From assembly GCF_964204645.1 (NCBI RefSeq), contig NC_134028.1, positions 10,788,001-10,852,000 on the forward strand: a stretch of 64,000 bases of DNA, read 5' to 3'. Under the pieces are notes generated by a model. It searched no databases, was not told the DNA's origin, and saw nothing but the letters and a program-made list of their open reading frames with translations. The stretch is from Tubulanus polymorphus. Lineage: Eukaryota > Animalia > Nemertea. Numbering within the stretch: position 1 is the stretch's first letter; every line of letters starts with the position of its first letter. Below, piece by piece: positions 11,468 to 64,000 of the stretch. The translations under genes were made by a program, and so were the position numbers.

Positions 11468-41763
<30,296 letters not shown>

Positions 41764-55100: not shown

Positions 55101-58100
55101 TTGAATAACCTATCCATATATCATCTTCAATTTTATAAAATCTGACTTTTGAGATGTCATTCAATCAATGCATTCACATGCGGTCGTCGCTTTCAATAGC
55201 CACCACGGACTGGCTCCTTATTATTTCTTTGGTGATACCATTGGCGGACGATCCCACACGTTTCTTGCTCCAGCCCTAGAATGCTCAATATTCGTCATGA
55301 ACCCCGATTTGAGTTTAAATTCAAAATACTCCTAAAACACACCTGTTAACTAGATTACTCTAAAACACCTTTATGTGCAAGAATCAGTGAAATTGGCGCT
55401 TTATCAGTTGTATTCATCATTCGTACCCACGAATCTCGTATCGTAACCTATTAATGTGGAGACCCATCCTCGTAAAGAGAATGAATAGGCTCTGTTGCGT
55501 TCATATCATTTGATATGAGGCTACGTGTCATCTTCAATTGAAATCACGTTGTTTTTTTAAAGGGTGGGCGAGAATATATTCTTATGTTTTTGTTTCTCTG
55601 AATGTTGCTATTTAAGAGTTCAATAATTTCAGTCTACCAAACAAAGGATTTTCCGTATGTTTCGTGACATGTTTTTCCATAACCCTAGGAGAGCATTTTA
55701 GGTATTTTTTGCGGATGACCGAAAGCTGCTGTCCCTTTCTAGTAATTTGATGATATCCGTCGAAATCTAAATTCTAAAAAGGAATTAGGCATATCTTCTT
55801 TATTGACTAAATATGAACTCAACAACAAGTGACACTCCCTTCAAAGGCGCCGAAGTAAAATCATGTGTCGAGTGGAGATGATATTGTGTCAGAATTTCTT
55901 CAAAATCGGAGAAAATTTAATATTTTAAAAATAATCATTTTACATGTATGTTTAAATCCGTTATAACTGGAGCAATTTTCATGAAAAAATATCTATGGAA
56001 TCAGCGAAATGTAATTAAGAGGAATACTATGTTTAAAAAGTTATCAAAGACATTTGAAAAAAGTTTTCTGAATTCGTCAACTGTTAAACTAGTAACAACC
56101 AGATGTGTTCCCATTAAACCACCGACCGCGAGCCGAGTCGATGTGAGATGTGCCCTACACTGAAAATCTCAAGTGCTATACAACCGGTTTTTTAGGTGCC
56201 TCTGAATGTCGGCCGTTAAAAAAACTGAACAATTCCCATTTGGAAAGGGCCTACGTAGTTAGAGAAAATTCAAGATGTGTATATCGTGTGATACAGACTC
56301 CATATTTCATGCGCGTTTGGAATTTAACCTTGTTTATAACGAAACACGCATGTATTTGTGCTATTTTAGATTTAAAAAGAGCGCACGAAAGTGTTTCATG
56401 AGACCCGCAAATAACGTCAAGTTATTTATGCATTTTTGATTTATATGAATAAATTTCGCTTCGAAATCTTAAAATTTCTCAGGTGGATAATTCAATAAAT
56501 TCACAACAGTCCATTATGGATTAGTTTGACGCCAATCGTTCTTTTAAAGATCATTCTTTCTCGAAGAAAGATTTTCTTAAAAACTTTGACTATGGCGAAT
56601 CTTTTATGTGTCCGATAGTTAAACCTTCGGGTATTATACTAGAACACAAATTTAAACAAAGATATTCATAACATACTGAAGGATATCACAGGTTATACCC
56701 GAACATATGCAGTTGGATAGATCTTTTTGTTTCGACTCGCATGCGACAGTAAAAACGGTACTTGATATAATAAGTGAACTTCATCATTGATATTTTAACT
56801 AATCTACTTGAATTCCAAAAAAGAACTGACAATGAAAAAGGGTTACAGCTGTGACTGATATCGCTCCAAATTTCAATTCCTATGAACACTTTTAATATAA
56901 AGAAAACTATTAACGAAACAGTTTTTATAAGCGAAGAATCCGCGTTACCATCGAATTTTCAAAACTTGAAGGAATGGTTAATGCCTCGGTGACCACTGGT
57001 CTAGTACGCGGTTTTCTGAAATGAAAGTGGCCAAGTCTAAAGAACAACTATTGTATCACATGATTTCAAATATTAGGAACCCAATGCGATAATGATTTAA
57101 TTAATTGGTATCGCGCAGATTGGTTGAAAGACGGGTGTTAGTCACCTTGTGATTTAATTGTTTTTCATGCATCGATTAATTAATCTTATTATAACTTATT
57201 TGTAGGCGCATCCCGCAAACATTTTCTATTCGTTGAGTTTTCAAACGCAGTACTGTTCAGATGATTCGAGTCAAGTAGTAAAAAAGTTTATGTATTAGCA
57301 TTACTATGCAGTGAAAATAACGCACTGCGGCAAGTGAGGTGCTGTGATCCAGATGTGTAACCCATTTATGGGTAATAAATTTCCATCATGTCAACGCCAT
57401 TCAAAAACAGTAGCAAAACTTTCTGCTGGTTTCTAGAAATAGCAATACGACGACAAACACTTTCGAATTCGACCACGATATTTGAGAAGTTTCACTGGTG
57501 GTCAGTGATGGTCAATTTATGAATTTTAATGGCGAATCCTTTCTAGTTTCACACCAAAAGCGGTACCGGTATATCGTTCTTTCAAGAAGTTTCAATTGGT
57601 CAGTGGTGGTCAGTGATGGTCAATTTATGAATTTTCAATGGCGAATCCTTTCTAGTTTGACACCATAACGCGGTATATCGTTTTCATATTCGAGAAGTTT
57701 GAATTGGTCATTGGTGGTCAGTGATGGTCAGTGATGAATTTGCAATGATGATTCCTTAGAGGTTTGAAAACAAACATTACATGATAAATTTCCGAAATTC
57801 GAAGTCAAGTGGTCAGACTCGGGGATATCTCAATTGGTCAGTTACTGACCATCATGGTGTCACCATTGTGGTCTATAGCTCAAATGAAACATGTGGAACC
57901 GACGAAGGGGCCCAAAAGCGTTAAGTCATTTCCTGGAGTGACGTGATCCAAAAATGCCCTAACTGGAAAAGGCAGTCTCTCAATTGGATGAAACCAAATC
58001 GGACAGGACAATTAAAATTTGGGAAGGCCACACTTTCTACGAAGCCCACGCGGTGAGCGTATTATTATGAAATCTTTTTTTAAACCACCATGTACCACGA

Positions 58101-58276
58101 AGTAATAAGCATCGTTGTAAGCACTTGAAACAGCCATTAACCACTTGAAACTGTCAGATCAAACATCATACCGCATCCCCGCAAAGAGGGGTGGTTCAGC
58201 AAACCGGAGTTTTCATTAGCCTCTCTAGACTACCCCGCCAGTACGGGTAGCCGAGCAAACCGGAAAACTCATAATG
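49184..58276 (-). mobile_element. Inverted copy 2 of the CATTATGAG element, containing a partial direct copy (49334-~52680)
   Basis: Both termini are present (49184 and 58276). 49334-52680 is the reverse complement of ~54255-58276 apart from a ~1-kb deletion at ~52030. Confidence 0.85.
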
Positions 58277-58455
58277 AAGTGGACAGCAGCAAGGATCGGG
58301 CTCGGAGCCGTCTTACTACAAGACAAACATCCCGTTGAATATGGCTCTCGTAGCCTAACCTCTGCCGAACGTAATTGGGCTCAAATCGAGAAGGAGATGC
58401 TGTCGATTGTATTTGCGTTGGAATGATTCGACCAGTATACGTGTGGCCGGGTGGT
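58277..58455 (+). pseudogene. Ty3/Gypsy RNase H fragment continuing 48860-49183
   Basis: VDSSKD.LGAVLLQDKHPVEYGSRSLTSAERNWAQIEKEMLSIVFALE*FDQYTCGR. Confidence 0.88.
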
Positions 58456-58460
58456 TTTTC

Positions 58461-59032
58461 TGTAAGGTGCTGCCATCTACAGTGCTCTATATTATGATTT
58501 TTGGCGGCAACCGGTCAGTTCGAGATTGGTCATCGATCAGGTGATATCTCCGGATTTGCAATATCGTAATTAAAAGTAATTATTTATACTGATATCTCTG
58601 TTGTCGCAGGTGAGGAAGTTTTTGTTACGAAATGTTTGTTGATGATTTAGAATGTGAAAATAATTGTATTTGAGATTTGTAGATATTTGTTGAAATAATG
58701 TAAGGCGCAGTTCGAGATTGTTCATCGATCAGGTGATATCTCCGGATTTGCAATATCGTAATTAAAAGTGATTATTTATACTGATATCTCTGTTGTCGCA
58801 GGTCTCTCTTTGTTTCTGCGTCTGTGGTTAGAAGTCTCTGTCGAGCAGTTGGTCGCCCGGCATCCGCATCTCCAGGACCCCAATTTAACTGTGACTCAGG
58901 GGCATCTTCACCCGTCAAGGGATTCGAACCCACTACGCTAAAGCTGTTCCCCGAACCCCGTGACCTCACGAGTCGTTGGAGCCGTTACTGTGAAAATGTA
59001 ATCATTACTTTCCACCACTAGACAGTGGAGAC
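58461..59032. mobile_element. LTR-like segment with internal ~95-bp direct duplication
   Basis: TGTAAGG...GACA ends. 58518-58610 is repeated at 58709-58802. No TSD verified. Confidence 0.35.
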
Positions 59033-59195
59033 ATCTGTTATGTTGTATGTTAACTAATGTTGGACCATATAATAAAGTTTAGTTTTAGTTGTGATATCTA
59101 AGAGAAAGTTCTTGTGTGTTAACTCTCTTGAAGCCTCCAGGATAATCATTTTCTTTAGTCGAAAGACTGGGATTGGATTCCACGATCTGCTCAAC

Positions 59196-59720
59196 ATGTC
59201 CCCTGTAACAGGTTATGGGCCCAGTGGCAGAACAAGGGCACCCATATTTGATGGGGACGAGAATAAGTTCGAACTGTGGTTGACTAAATTTGAAGGTTAC
59301 ATGCGGATTATTAAATTACATAAGATAATCGATGGGACTACTAATATTACTGGAGAAGAACTTGTAAACAAAAAAGCAGAAGCGTACGCCGAATTAGTCC
59401 AATGTTTGGACGACAGATCCCTGGCATTAGTCATGCGCGAAACGAAGAATGATGGCCAGAAAGGACTTGAATTGTTAAAGGAACATTATATGTCAAAAGG
59501 AAAACCAAAGATCATAACATTATATAGCCAGCTAACATCGCTGATGAAAAGCCCAACAGAATATTTAACGGATTATATGTTGCGGGCTGAGACCGCGGTA
59601 GCGTTGTTAAAATCTGCGGGAGAAACGGTCAGTGATAGCCTACTTGTGGCAATGACAATAAAAGGACTTCCAGAGGCATTTAATGCATTTTCAACCGTGA
59701 TGACGCAAATAGATGGTGAG
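59196..59720 (+). pseudogene. Ty1/Copia gag N-terminal fragment, 3'-truncated
   Basis: MSPVTGYGPSG...IFDGDENKFELWLTKFEGYM...AYAELVQCLDDRSLALVMRE..NDG.K.L..LKEHY..KGKPKIITLY..LTSL...DYMLRAETA...LK.AGETVSDSLLVAM.IKGLP is typical metazoan Copia gag. GGTTATGGGCCCAG lies at 59211-59224. Confidence 0.85.
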
Positions 59721-59808
59721 TTGAGTAATTGGAAGATGTGGGTTTCATACCAGAGTACTAGAGTACTAAACACCACTCATCACCACAAGTAATTTTTTTT
59801 CCTAATAA

Positions 59809-62800
59809 ATGGGAGAGAGTGAGTACCAGACAGAAAACAATAATGTTAATAAAAATCAATATTATTGCCAATATTGTAAAAAATACATCGATAAATCTAA
59901 ACATGAAAAATCTTCAAATCATATAAAAAATGTTATAGATTTTGAAACTCCAGAAAATTCCAATGAAAGAAAAGAACGATTAGAAAATATGAATGTGGAT
60001 GAAATAAAATGTGAAGTTTGTAATGAATTTATAGTAAAAAGGAATTATAATAGACATCTCGAATCACAAAAACACCATCAAAATTTGAGTAATAATGTTT
60101 TAGGAAAAGATTATTTTGATGATAAACCTCAACAAGTTCAAAAACTAAATCCATTTCAAATAAACCTTACATGGAAAATGTTAGAAATTATATTGATTCA
60201 CTAGAAATAAAAGATACAATTGAAATATTAGAAACATAACGTAGTAAAATTGGTCCTGCAGTTATTGTATTTAGATTTTTTTAAAGGTACAACAATAGAA
60301 GATTATAGTAAATTTAATGAAAAAATAGAAAAAACACTAGATTTGATAACAGATGTTGAATATCCAAAAATTAGTATCTCTGGGAAAGTAAGTTTTTTAA
60401 AGTCAGAAGATAAAATGGATTATAATATTCAAACACTCTCTGAAGAAATAATTTCAAAAACACAAATAAAAGAGAAGTTAGAAAAAATATTTAATGAATT
60501 TTAACGTCATATTGAAGAAAGATATTTTGAGGGTTCTGGCTTAACATTGAATGAAATTATATTTTTAGATTTAAATGTTTATAATACAAAAAGAAATAAA
60601 ACATCAAAAAGTAATAAAATGTTTAAAAAGGATTCAAACTTTACAACAGAAAAGGAGGATATTTAAGGATCATCTTATATTAAATTACCATTTACAACAA
60701 AAGCAGTAATAAATGTTCAAAATGAAGATAATAAATGTTTTCTGTGTGCAATTATTAGTTGCTTACATCCAACAGAAGATATTACACATAGTTTTAGAAT
60801 AACAAATTACCGGAAATATGAAACATTATATAGAATTGATCAATATCCAGTAACTATAAAAATGATTTCTAAAATAGAAAAAGTTAATAATTTAGAAATA
60901 AATGTATTCGAATTAATGCAATTACCAAAGACAAAAGGTGAAAATATTAAAGATTATACATTGGAAGCTTTATATTTAACAGAATATTATGATGATGAAA
61001 ATGCTATAGATTTGTTATATTACAAAAAAGATGAAAATGAACATTATATGTGGTTAAAACAAATTGATTTATTCTTTAGAACAGAAAGTGATCATCATCG
61101 TAAAATTTATCTATGTAGAAAATGTTTATCTAAATTAATGACTGAGAATACATTATTAAAACATAAAGAATTATGTGATAATAAAGATTTTTGTGAATTA
61201 ATAATGCCAACAGAAAAAGATTATAAATTGAAATTTACTAATCATAAATTTAAGAATATTGTTCCATTTGTAATTTATGGGGATTTTGAATCGTTGAATA
61301 AAGAATTAACTGATCAAGATAGAAAAGAAATATATAACAAAAAGCAATTATCAAAATCAATGGATAAAGGAAATGAATTAAATTAAGACACAATACAAGA
61401 CCCACCAATTATAAATACAATTAAAAAAGTTCATCAAAGAGCTGCTGCTTATGGAATTTATATAAAATCAAATTATCCTGATTTATATGAAAGTCAATAT
61501 ATTTCTTTTAGAGGTGAGGATGTAGTTAATGATTTTTGTAACAAAATGATTGAATTAGAAAGTGATTTTGCAAAATTATTAAACAAAAATAAAACAATAG
61601 TTATGACAAAAGAAGATGAAATTGATTTTCATTATGCAACTCATTGTTGTAACTGTGAAAAACGTTTTTATTCATTTGATAAAAAAGTTAGAGATCATGA
61701 TCATTTAAATTCAAAATATCGTGGAGCTGCTCATGAAGATTGCAATTTACAAGAAAGTTAATTTCGTACCAATATTATTTCATAATTTATCAGGCTATGA
61801 TACCCATCTATTTATAAAACAATTATCGGGAAAATTGAGCGCAATTAATCAAGAAATAGAAGAATATAATGCTATAAATGGTGTAAATGTAAGAAAATAT
61901 GATTTTAAACTATTAGCTAAAACATCTGAAAATTATATTTCATTTCAATTTGGTTGCATTAGATTTTTAGATTCTTATAGATTTCTAGCAAGTTTATTAG
62001 ATAATTTATCAAAAAGTTTAGTTGATAATGATTTTGTTATAACTCGATATTATTATCCAAATAAACAAGATTTTAATTTATTGAGATCAATTAAAAGAGG
62101 AGTATGTGAAGTGTTTAATAGAACATTAAATATTTGGAACCATTTTAAGATGAAAAATCATGGTGAATTAGTAGATTTATATTTAAAATCAGATGTTATG
62201 ATATTGGCTGACATATTTGAAAAATTTAGAGAAGTTAATTTGAATCATTTTAATGTTGATCCTTGTTATTGCTACTCTAGTCCTGGTTTAACCTGGCAAT
62301 GTGGTTTAAAATACACAAATGTAGAATTAGATTTATTAAAAGAACCAGACATGGTTTTATTATTTGAAAAATCAATTAGAGGTGGAATTAGTGGTGTTAT
62401 GGGAGATAGATATTTTAAAGCAAATGATGAATATAAATTATCATATATTGACGCCAATAATTTATATGGTCGGGCAATGATGCAACATCAACCATATAAA
62501 AATTTTATATTAACAGAAGTTGAAAATGATGATAAAACTGATTGGGAAAGCGCAATTGCGAGTTTAAAAGATGAAGCACCAATTGGTTATTTCTTTGTAG
62601 TTGATTTAGAATATCCTGAAAATATAAAGTTTAAAACAAGAAACTTACCTTATTGCCCAGAACATTTAACTGTAGATGATAGTTATTTAAGTGAATACCA
62701 GAAGAAAATAAAACCGAAAGATCATGTTTTACAGAAAAATTAATACTTACTCAAAATAATAAATACAATATCGTTCATTATAGAATATTAAAATTTTATC

Positions 62801-64000
62801 TAAAACAAGGAATGAAATTAAAGAAAGTACATGGATATATTGAATTTAATCAATCGAAGTGGTTAGAAAAATATATAGATTTCAATACTCAACAGAGAAC
62901 CATATCAAAAACAGATTTTGAAAAAGATTTCTTCAAATTAATGAACAATAGTTTTTATGGTAAAACATGCGAACATATTAGAAATAGAAATGATATTGAA
63001 TTAGTAAATAATTCTAAAAGATTAAGACATTTACAATCAAGTCCTAGACATTTAGGAAATAAAAGATTTGAAGATTATTTAACAGCAGTTAAATTAAAAA
63101 GAACGTCAATGAAATTTAATAAACCTATATTCATTGGTTCAACTGTTTTAGAAGTATCAAAATTATTAATGTATGATTTTTATTATAATGTTTTACAACC
63201 ACTTTTTGGGGAAAAGCATATTGAAATATTATATTTTGATTCTGTAACAGCTGACACCCCAATATTATTAAAATGTAATGATAAAATATTAATTAGAAGA
63301 ATTTCAGAAATAATTCCAAAACAAAATGAATGTTATATTTCATATGGTGAAAAAGAATTAATACAAATAAATGGATTAATGGATGTTTGGAAAAGAAATG
63401 TATGGAAAAAATTAAAGAATATTATTAGACATAAAACAAATAAGAAAATCTATAGAGTTAGAACTAAATTAGGATTTGTAGATGTTACAGAAGATCATAG
63501 TTTAATTAAACGAAATGGCGATGAAATAAAACCAACTGATATAAAAATTGGAGATGAATTATTACATAAAAGATTTTTCCAAAGAATGAATCATATGTCA
63601 TTTGATGCAATTATTGATAATATTTATAATATAGAACCTGAAACATTAGAAGAAAAAGAATATTTTATCAAAGGATTTTTCATGGGTGATGGTTCAGCAG
63701 GTTTGTATAATTATGTTTGGGGTAATAAATATTGTTGGTATTTATGCAATCAAGACTTAAAATTATTAGAAAGAATTAAGAAATTCTGTGAAGAAGTATA
63801 TCCAAATAAAACATTTAAAATCATGGATGTTATGAAATCATCAGCAGTTTATAGAATACTTGTAAATAATCCTAAAGATTTTGCTATAAAATATAATGAT
63901 GAATTCTATATTCATGCAATAGTGAAAAGTAATACTTCAACAAAAGAAAGGATAGTACCAGATTATGTATTAAATGCAAAAAATAATTTAAGAAAGTGGT
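59809..64000 (+). pseudogene. Polinton/Maverick (adintovirus-like) protein-primed family B DNA polymerase, degenerate, interrupted by an intein; runs off the window
   Basis: Motifs in order: zinc fingers; EGSG, GSSYIKLP, NEDNKCF; ExoI YGDFES (~61276); endonuclease VII-like C..C...VRDHDH...YRGAAH..CN; ExoII FHNLSGYD; ExoIII YLKSDV; RGG; motif A YIDANNLYG (~62444); motif B KLMNNSFYGK (62935); motif C first half LYFD (63229-63240). Stops at 60237, 60502, 60664, 61384 and about four frameshifts. Confidence 0.92.
63241..64000 (+). mobile_element. Intein with LAGLIDADG (DOD) homing endonuclease in PolB motif C; C-terminus outside the window
   Basis: Open frame: block A SVTADTPILL; W..L..IIRHKTNKKIYRVRTKLGFVDVTEDHSL (block B TxxH, 63487-63498); IKPTDIKIGDELL; block C IKGFFMGDG (63667-63693); ends IVPDYVLNA just before the expected block E. 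Confidence 0.93.

Follow-up and report, generated by a model that had tools for sequence, protein, structure and literature searches.

How does an intein of the kind carried by giant-virus DNA polymerases come to lie in the polymerase of a Polinton? The question is raised by the right-hand end of a 64,000-nucleotide stretch from the assembly of the nemertean Tubulanus polymorphus (NC_134028.1, positions 10,788,001 to 10,852,000; hereafter the window), where an intein interrupts the broken gene of a Polinton/adintovirus-type protein-primed DNA polymerase (pPolB). A first-pass annotation, made from the letters of the window, had proposed that a Mimivirus-type PolB intein had jumped there between polymerase classes. 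The explanation that we favor, at a probability of roughly four in five, is an old, single entry of the intein into Polintons from the PolB of giant viruses (Nucleocytoviricota), after which it would have persisted through inheritance, precise losses and homing into copies that were empty.

The intein and its host polymerase

The last open frame of the broken gene (62695-63999) runs through polymerase motif B to ...EILYFD and, from 63241, on into the intein, with the insertion point exactly between the Asp and the Thr of the catalytic YxDTDS (motif C). All of the motif strings listed by the first-pass annotation are in frame in 63241-63999, directly after ...EILYFD, and its reading of the site was borne out as well: the Mimivirus PolB intein, the pol-c (position III) allele, sits at the corresponding point (YGD/TDS; Ogata et al. 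2005, PMC549080), and the closest exteins read through an uninterrupted YFDTDS. The extein and the parts of the intein are as follows.

59770..63240, forward strand: N-extein, broken, Polinton/adintovirus-type pPolB; GC 23.5%
63241..64000, forward strand: the initial 253 residues of a pol-c (motif C) intein, which runs past the window end
63241..63264, forward strand: intein block A, with Ser1 as the predicted nucleophile
63481..63504, forward strand: block B of the intein, with T-x-x-H unchanged across all 56 aligned sequences
63664..63693, forward strand: first LAGLIDADG helix of the homing endonuclease, acidic residue retained

The intein N-terminus scored 31.5 bits against TIGR01445 (curated cut-off 24.5), and a match to Pfam Intein_splicing was weaker than the gathering score (E 6e-5). 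Since those relatives that are complete measure 339-354 aa, the 253 residues in the window, which the first-pass annotation had taken for the intein, belong to a real intein but are not its whole length of ~340-355 aa; its other LAGLIDADG motif and the splicing blocks of its C-terminus fall past 64000. In relatives both LAGLIDADG motifs are seen, with both endonuclease acidic motifs retained in all five complete pPolB inteins aligned, and blocks F/G, the terminal Asn and Thr+1 were found in P0134 (which shares 80% identity with the window intein across 59 aa) and in eight of eight complete pPolB relatives. The predicted fold of one complete relative, P0126, combines HINT and LAGLIDADG domains (pLDDT 90) and found its best matches in polymerase inteins of a phycodnavirus, Pandoravirus and Megavirus (26-32%) and, in the PDB, in archaeal inteins, the TliVMA intein foremost; the fold predicted for the partial window intein was poor (pLDDT 46), and its matches served as leads only. 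Judged by its sequence, then, this is a real Ser-start, LAGLIDADG-bearing intein in polymerase motif C. With its Asp/Thr motif C site, Ser start, T-x-x-H, LAGLIDADG motif and length of ~350 aa it resembles the pol-c inteins of Mimivirus, Nucleocytoviricota and archaea as these are described by Ogata et al. (PMC549080), and its relatives share with them the Asn end and Thr+1.

Intein biology suggests how such an element would behave. The product of an intact copy would be freed of the intein by self-splicing, carried out by Ser1, the block B His, the terminal Asn and Thr+1, and its catalytic YxDTDS would thereby be restored. Once the LAGLIDADG endonuclease had cut an empty Y-x-D-T-D-S site, repair templated on an occupied copy would install the intein there. 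A short shared motif in AT-rich codons, together with a relaxed endonuclease, may have permitted the original cross-class jump and a later one into a polymerase class that bears a VSR-like motif; relaxed specificity of intein endonucleases has been argued for giant viruses (10.1101/299784, PMC10710043).

The host polymerase is of the PF03175 (protein-primed) type and not the RNA-primed PF00136 type, and it gave no alignment to giant-virus exteins, in agreement with the first-pass annotation, which had called it Polinton-type and not a Nucleocytoviricota-type PolB. In this it differs from the host of the Mimivirus pol-c intein, being the polymerase of an integrating Polinton and not a Pol-delta-like enzyme. 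An extein search yielded 4704 matches among 4975 candidates, and the best 120, which were examined, comprised 1 intein-bearing match, 112 with the empty-site pattern, 6 visibly empty with variant residues, and 1 ending before the site. Among the matches listed, the four closest (P0143-P0146; 88, 77, 75 and 71% identity) read YFDTDS and are intein-free, and the named ones are from spiders, corals, bivalves and a beetle. A further 29 pPolB loci held no intein, 26 of them being empty and 3 without the site. Intein-free extein relatives at 39-42% sit on viral contigs of 15-17 kb, and in four such contigs scanned there was a double-jelly-roll capsid in three, an A32 ATPase in four, and an rve integrase in three; the host is accordingly best taken as an element of the Polinton/adintovirus type, of which the window copy itself shows the polymerase only. 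The combination of PF03175 with an HNH/endonuclease-VII-like insertion in the window class, or with a VSR-like motif in P0008, is likewise that reported for the pPolBs of Polintons, Mavericks and adintoviruses (PMC8502044, PMC10748475, PMC11161782), although the insertions treated in those accounts are HNH or VSR without a splicing domain, unlike the HINT plus LAGLIDADG found here in the catalytic motif. The label "pPolB2" was dropped for the host, since the pPolB1 and pPolB2 of Jeong are both placed among Group 2 polymerases (PMC10748475). Several Polinton-type polymerases stand under bacterial or archaeal names or in metagenome-assembled genomes (MAGs), i.e., P0147, P0150 and L138-L153, and are probably mis-binned eukaryotic-virus contigs. 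From their weak and stronger PF03175 scores, respectively, and from their motifs, the window polymerase may be "Beta-like" and that of P0008 "Alpha-like", the Beta class of adintovirus PolB being marked by a divergent OTU-PolB that falls with the Terrapene exemplar (Starrett 2021, PMC8502044).

The closest inteins and the probable direction of the jump

The nearest inteins were found in other Polinton polymerases. Of the 1489 candidates that the intein search gave for longer proteins, 265 passed, and the best 120, which were examined, comprised 6 protein-primed polymerases, 3 topoisomerases II, and 111 proteins with PF00136. The top five single-stretch BLAST matches among those listed all have protein-primed hosts (61, 47, 45, 46 and 46%), and after these pPolB-borne inteins come those of RNA-primed PolBs at ~35-42%, with YGD/S junctions. 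A near-length search brought 10 more pPolB-type pieces among 19 matches, short fragments showing higher identity, and an exhaustive search gave 916 representatives at E<=1e-10, for which the junctions of the best 150 are nearly all YGD/S and of the RNA-primed type. Profile scans found 44 viral loci, including 10 named giant-virus MAG contigs, and 80 metagenome loci, including one pPolB (L045); single-sequence scans of viral contigs were empty (0 of 5 stretches for the intein, 0 of 44 for P0008, 0 of 3 for P0144), and it was scans with alignments that gave matches.

Altogether, the window intein is 45-62% identical to the inteins of other Polinton-type polymerases and 40-45% identical to PolB inteins of uncultured giant viruses, the exteins of the latter being unalignable with that of the window (chance-level scores of 36-43). 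The named Mimiviridae matches, which are to Megavirus and not to Mimivirus R322 itself, reach 22-33% in structure-guided alignments that rest in part on the poor model. The first-pass annotation was thus right about the giant-virus pol-c allele family, but its choice of Mimivirus as the specific source is not supported, the nearest viral inteins being those of uncultured giant viruses and not of Megavirus.

Two trees, a quick one of 116 dereplicated inteins and a careful one of 69 hand-picked rows (62 of those 116 and 7 others; maximum likelihood, LG+C20 PMSF, with the family's topoisomerase II inteins as the root), agree. The 9 pPolB inteins are a single clade (support 100/99), monophyletic in all three partitions of the alignment (97-99), and this clade is sister to 13 giant-virus-type motif-C inteins (98/91) within a clade of 51 rows (99/98). 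Forcing the pPolB inteins outside all of the RNA-primed-PolB inteins cost 43.7 log units (approximately unbiased [AU] test, p=0.0335). At three of the sister-clade loci the neighbors are dense, intron-free genes, e.g., for WLM, ubiquitin hydrolase and RING proteins, a setting typical of giant viruses. Evidence that does not depend on the tree comes from block G, in which every complete pPolB intein (8 of 8) has lost one residue, as has one virus subclade: the short form recurs in 20 of the 208 RNA-primed-PolB motif-C inteins that are complete, a set with redundancy, and the giant-virus MAG contigs L001 and L002 are among the carriers; in this the Polinton inteins differ from most viral pol-c alleles, as they do in their junctions, which are YFD, YMD, YSD, YLD or YQD and rarely YGD. 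The sequences support a position of the pPolB inteins within the giant-virus motif-C inteins, with an exact sister that is unstable, and likewise support a cross-class jump between giant-virus PolB and Polinton pPolB. The separate comparison of intein and extein that the first-pass annotation had called for therefore came out as it had anticipated, with incongruent histories, the inteins falling inside the giant-virus motif-C clade and the nearest exteins being Polinton-type pPolBs. The likeness of the upstream DNA between window and viruses (8-14 of 18 bases) was not used, both being AT-rich and codon-constrained.

Some observations on the wider family stand beside these results. P0003 is the sole pPolB seen with a giant-virus-like YGD junction, its empty relatives reading YLD, YQD, YMD, YTD or YFD; this is possibly a trace of co-conversion, but a single case is too weak to build on. 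Six giant-virus-type PolBs (P0025, P0027, P0034, P0076, P0307, P0388) have a second intein site two residues further on, after YGDTD and with a Cys or Ser start, and in the first three of them two inteins stand back to back with only two extein residues between. The family of the window intein is also present in type II topoisomerases, at two acidic motifs, and in PolB motif B of many viral polymerases, cases (P0009, P0094, P0111 and P0376 among them) that together amount to repeated non-allelic jumps. Finally, PolB genes that start only ~66 residues before motif C (P0037, P0041, P0050, L057, L068, L085) are apparently split and intein-bearing.

Residence and probable mobility among Polintons

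Within the polymerase class of the window, intein and extein identities run in parallel (62/62, 47/50, 45/51, 45/49 and 52/52), and in the window the two parts are equal in composition (GC 23.6 vs 23.5%; GC3 0.119 vs 0.121), which speaks for a long residence of the intein in its host class. Its distribution is patchy nonetheless. An extein tree of 53 rows (one row, in which no site was found, having been dropped) requires at least 7 changes of intein state, and the exteins of P0264 and P0267 are 100% identical over 573 + 169 residues, the sole difference between them being a 339-aa intein; in the 121-member cluster of this pair, 15 members listed include 3 occupied, 1 empty, 2 with intein parts, and 9 without the site. 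P0008, the polymerase with the VSR-like motif, has an extein that is barely alignable and an intein that is 48% identical and nested in the pPolB clade, and because it belongs to a different polymerase class a second lateral step is needed. In other eukaryotic assemblies, too, intein-bearing pPolB families occur in many copies, many of them broken, on contigs of up to 825 kb (clusters P0126, with 55 members, P0128, with 14, and P0006, with 121).

The same patchiness probably extends to the copies within one genome. Four sequencing runs under one species label, possibly that of a sister species, contain 44-47% of the element's sampled words, and no RNA dataset was listed among those containing them. 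In raw genomic reads of the matching species label (~12% of one run), read depth is ~330-420 across the polymerase vs 13-30 in the lowest flank bins, and the family is therefore multicopy. At the junction, depth falls from ~500 to ~265, with 129 reads departing from the window sequence at exactly 63240 and 63 more four bases on, so occupied and empty copies likely coexist. Read in the simplest way, these depths would put the intein in about half to three quarters of the copies and leave the rest empty, the sequence past 63240 in the departing reads presumably being the empty site.

Against this background, the explanations that compete with an old single entry from giant viruses can be weighed. 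Flow in the reverse direction, in which GFPL-type giant viruses took the intein from AT-rich Polintons, or flow to both from some reservoir outside the present sampling, e.g., the Polinton-like viruses or the nuclear genes of protists, is unlikely, but several observations speak for it and against the reading that we favor. Each of the 9 giant-virus loci checked has an intein more AT-rich than the extein around it (e.g., 22% vs 33%), which would also fit a recent arrival in those viruses from an AT-rich donor. The pPolB clade is sister to the GFPL virus clade and not nested in it, and that sister link rests on the splicing domain (97), is absent from the endonuclease-only and window-length trees, and so shifts with the alignment partition; in addition, the AU p value is only modest, and the root was placed on topoisomerase II inteins and not on archaeal pol-c inteins. 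A third party has a precedent in viral-type inteins that spread non-allelically in a protist nucleus, as described in PMC10710043. The favored reading is further weakened by change counts on the extein tree, which cannot separate gain from loss, and by the finding of no capsid or integrase gene beside any intein-bearing pPolB, the sole such locus examined, L045, being only 4.2 kb long. What tells against reverse flow is the far greater diversity of the family in RNA-primed PolB, as seen in the 916 representatives and their YGD/S junctions, the presence of deeper pol-c relatives in archaeal RNA-primed PolB (so reported in PMC549080), and the AU test itself; the AT shift, moreover, is also found outside the GFPL clade (L052, L007), and so is not specific to a Polinton donor.

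A recent and local jump, from a Mimivirus-like virus into the window element during co-infection of this animal, would account for the site and allele family shared with Mimivirus and for the empty state of the nearest exteins. It is nevertheless very improbable, and is largely refuted by nearest inteins that lie in other Polinton polymerases and not in viruses, by the equal composition of intein and extein and their parallel identities within the clade, with the low Megavirus identities pointing the same way. The cross-class jump of the first-pass annotation survives, upheld by the tree and the unalignable exteins, but as one old clade and not as a recent or local event, and its picture of a virophage-like or co-infecting lifestyle in an animal is no more than possible, as the founding jump could have taken place in a eukaryotic cell of any kind and much earlier than the present host. 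The largely congruent intein and extein subtrees of the HNH-bearing class might suggest that there was no homing at all, i.e., one ancestral insertion, vertical descent and many precise losses, with the endonuclease a mere passenger. We hold this, too, to be highly doubtful, given the lateral step required by P0008, endonuclease motifs that have been retained over ~50% divergence, and identical exteins both with and without the intein. As for vertical inheritance from the ancestor of all family B polymerases, in which, according to PMC549080, the site is universally conserved, it is refuted by inteins that are 40-45% identical where the exteins are unalignable; an assembly chimera is refuted with it, because the junction is spanned by independent contigs, and it recurs in intact proteins from other datasets. 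Neither retains any appreciable likelihood.

Beyond an old single entry lies a bolder and tentative proposal, which we think possible but would not bet on: that a giant-virus-born intein family, present in two Polinton polymerase classes, is still homing in animal nuclear genomes, and would thus be a natural protein-splicing gene drive in the metazoan germline, with an endonuclease that may also cut the giant-virus motif-C site. A parallel is provided by the inteins of Anaeramoeba (Gallot-Lavallee 2023, PMC10710043), which are described as of Nucleocytoviricota type and as having entered a eukaryotic nucleus and passed between sites that are not alike; the host there is a protist housekeeping gene, unlike the multicopy mobile-element polymerase of a probable animal considered here. 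Eukaryotic inteins have otherwise been surveyed in fungi, protists, algal plastids and large DNA viruses (PMC5784728, PMC7765530). We found no report of an intein in a Polinton or pPolB in the literature searched; subscription papers, figures, some supplements and database annotations lay outside the search, and a prior mention is possible. The word "intein" is absent from the main text and searched supplements of PMC8502044 and PMC10748475, the supplements of PMC10710043 contain no Polinton term, and the passages searched of PMC12220804, PMC3671162, PMC13768754, PMC5784728 and PMC7765530 have no such report. Pol-c inteins are themselves well known, and what is apparently new is that a giant-virus lineage of them has become established in the polymerases of Polintons. 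The family is direct evidence, at the level of sequence, for giant viruses and Polinton-type elements having at one time been together in a cell and having traded DNA at an active-site motif. It shows, too, that inteins do invade pPolB, which had previously been only suggested from nuclease insertions, an origin by intein invasion being proposed for them in one sentence of Krupovic 2024 (PMC11161782). As multicopy elements that occur here in both intein-bearing and intein-free form, Polintons lend themselves to tests of homing across very distant targets and, should the host be confirmed as an animal, of homing in an animal nucleus.

The broken gene and its surroundings

The window copy cannot make a polymerase: its coding sequence is spread over several frames, with upstream stops and frameshifts. 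The remaining pieces, and the flank that they abut, are as follows.

59076..59769, forward strand: Copia-type gag fragment, part of the flank and not of the element, abutting the left break (PF14223, E 7e-13)
59809..60204, forward strand: zinc-finger-like N-terminal polymerase piece, stop-terminated (zf-U1, E 5e-4, below cut-off)
60667..61386, forward strand: polymerase N-terminal-region piece, stop-terminated; a comparable region is seen by eye in the intact relatives P0144-P0146
61387..61761, forward strand: HNH/endonuclease-VII-like insertion piece, weak (E 0.016), above cut-off in relatives
61709..62743, forward strand: exonuclease/polymerase piece including motif A (PF03175 DNA_pol_B_2, 44.5 bits vs cut-off 25.8)
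62695..63240, forward strand: polymerase from motif B through the first half of motif C, ending YFD; 88% identity to the intein-free P0143

From ~59770 to the window end the DNA is AT-rich, with a GC content of 23-24%, and it is at ~59770 that this copy breaks off on the left; other copies, to judge by 494 reads, run on there into different sequence. A search of 56-64 kb of the window brought out no terminal inverted repeat, and there is no capsid, packaging ATPase, protease or rve integrase gene within the window, the element being cut at ~59770 on the left and its right side lying past 64000. Rfam and tRNA searches of the window gave no matches.

The first 59 kb is gene-poor, with a Pfam match, to an RNase H fragment, in 1 of the 136 frames scanned (of 170 frames of >=62 aa left of the element). 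On the minus strand at 35581-38339, two long overlapping frames (560 and 381 aa) have no Pfam match; they resemble uncharacterised clusters, mostly from molluscs and cnidarians, with a weak lead to P-element-like transposases (transposase-like at 36660-38339). Together with the named extein matches, this resemblance makes an invertebrate animal host likely on sequence alone, the frames scanned having given no host gene that would fix the phylum. Relics of LTR retrotransposons adjoin the element, namely the RNase H fragment at 58229-58423 and the Copia-type gag fragment at 59076-59792. Between these relics, at 58903-58989, lies a short repeat of very high copy (depth ~2400 vs 13-30 nearby), containing a B-box-like string, and we presume it to be a tRNA-derived SINE. 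A direct repeat of 96 nt occurs at 58516 and again at 58708, and 57492-57774 holds a tandem repeat of 108 nt.
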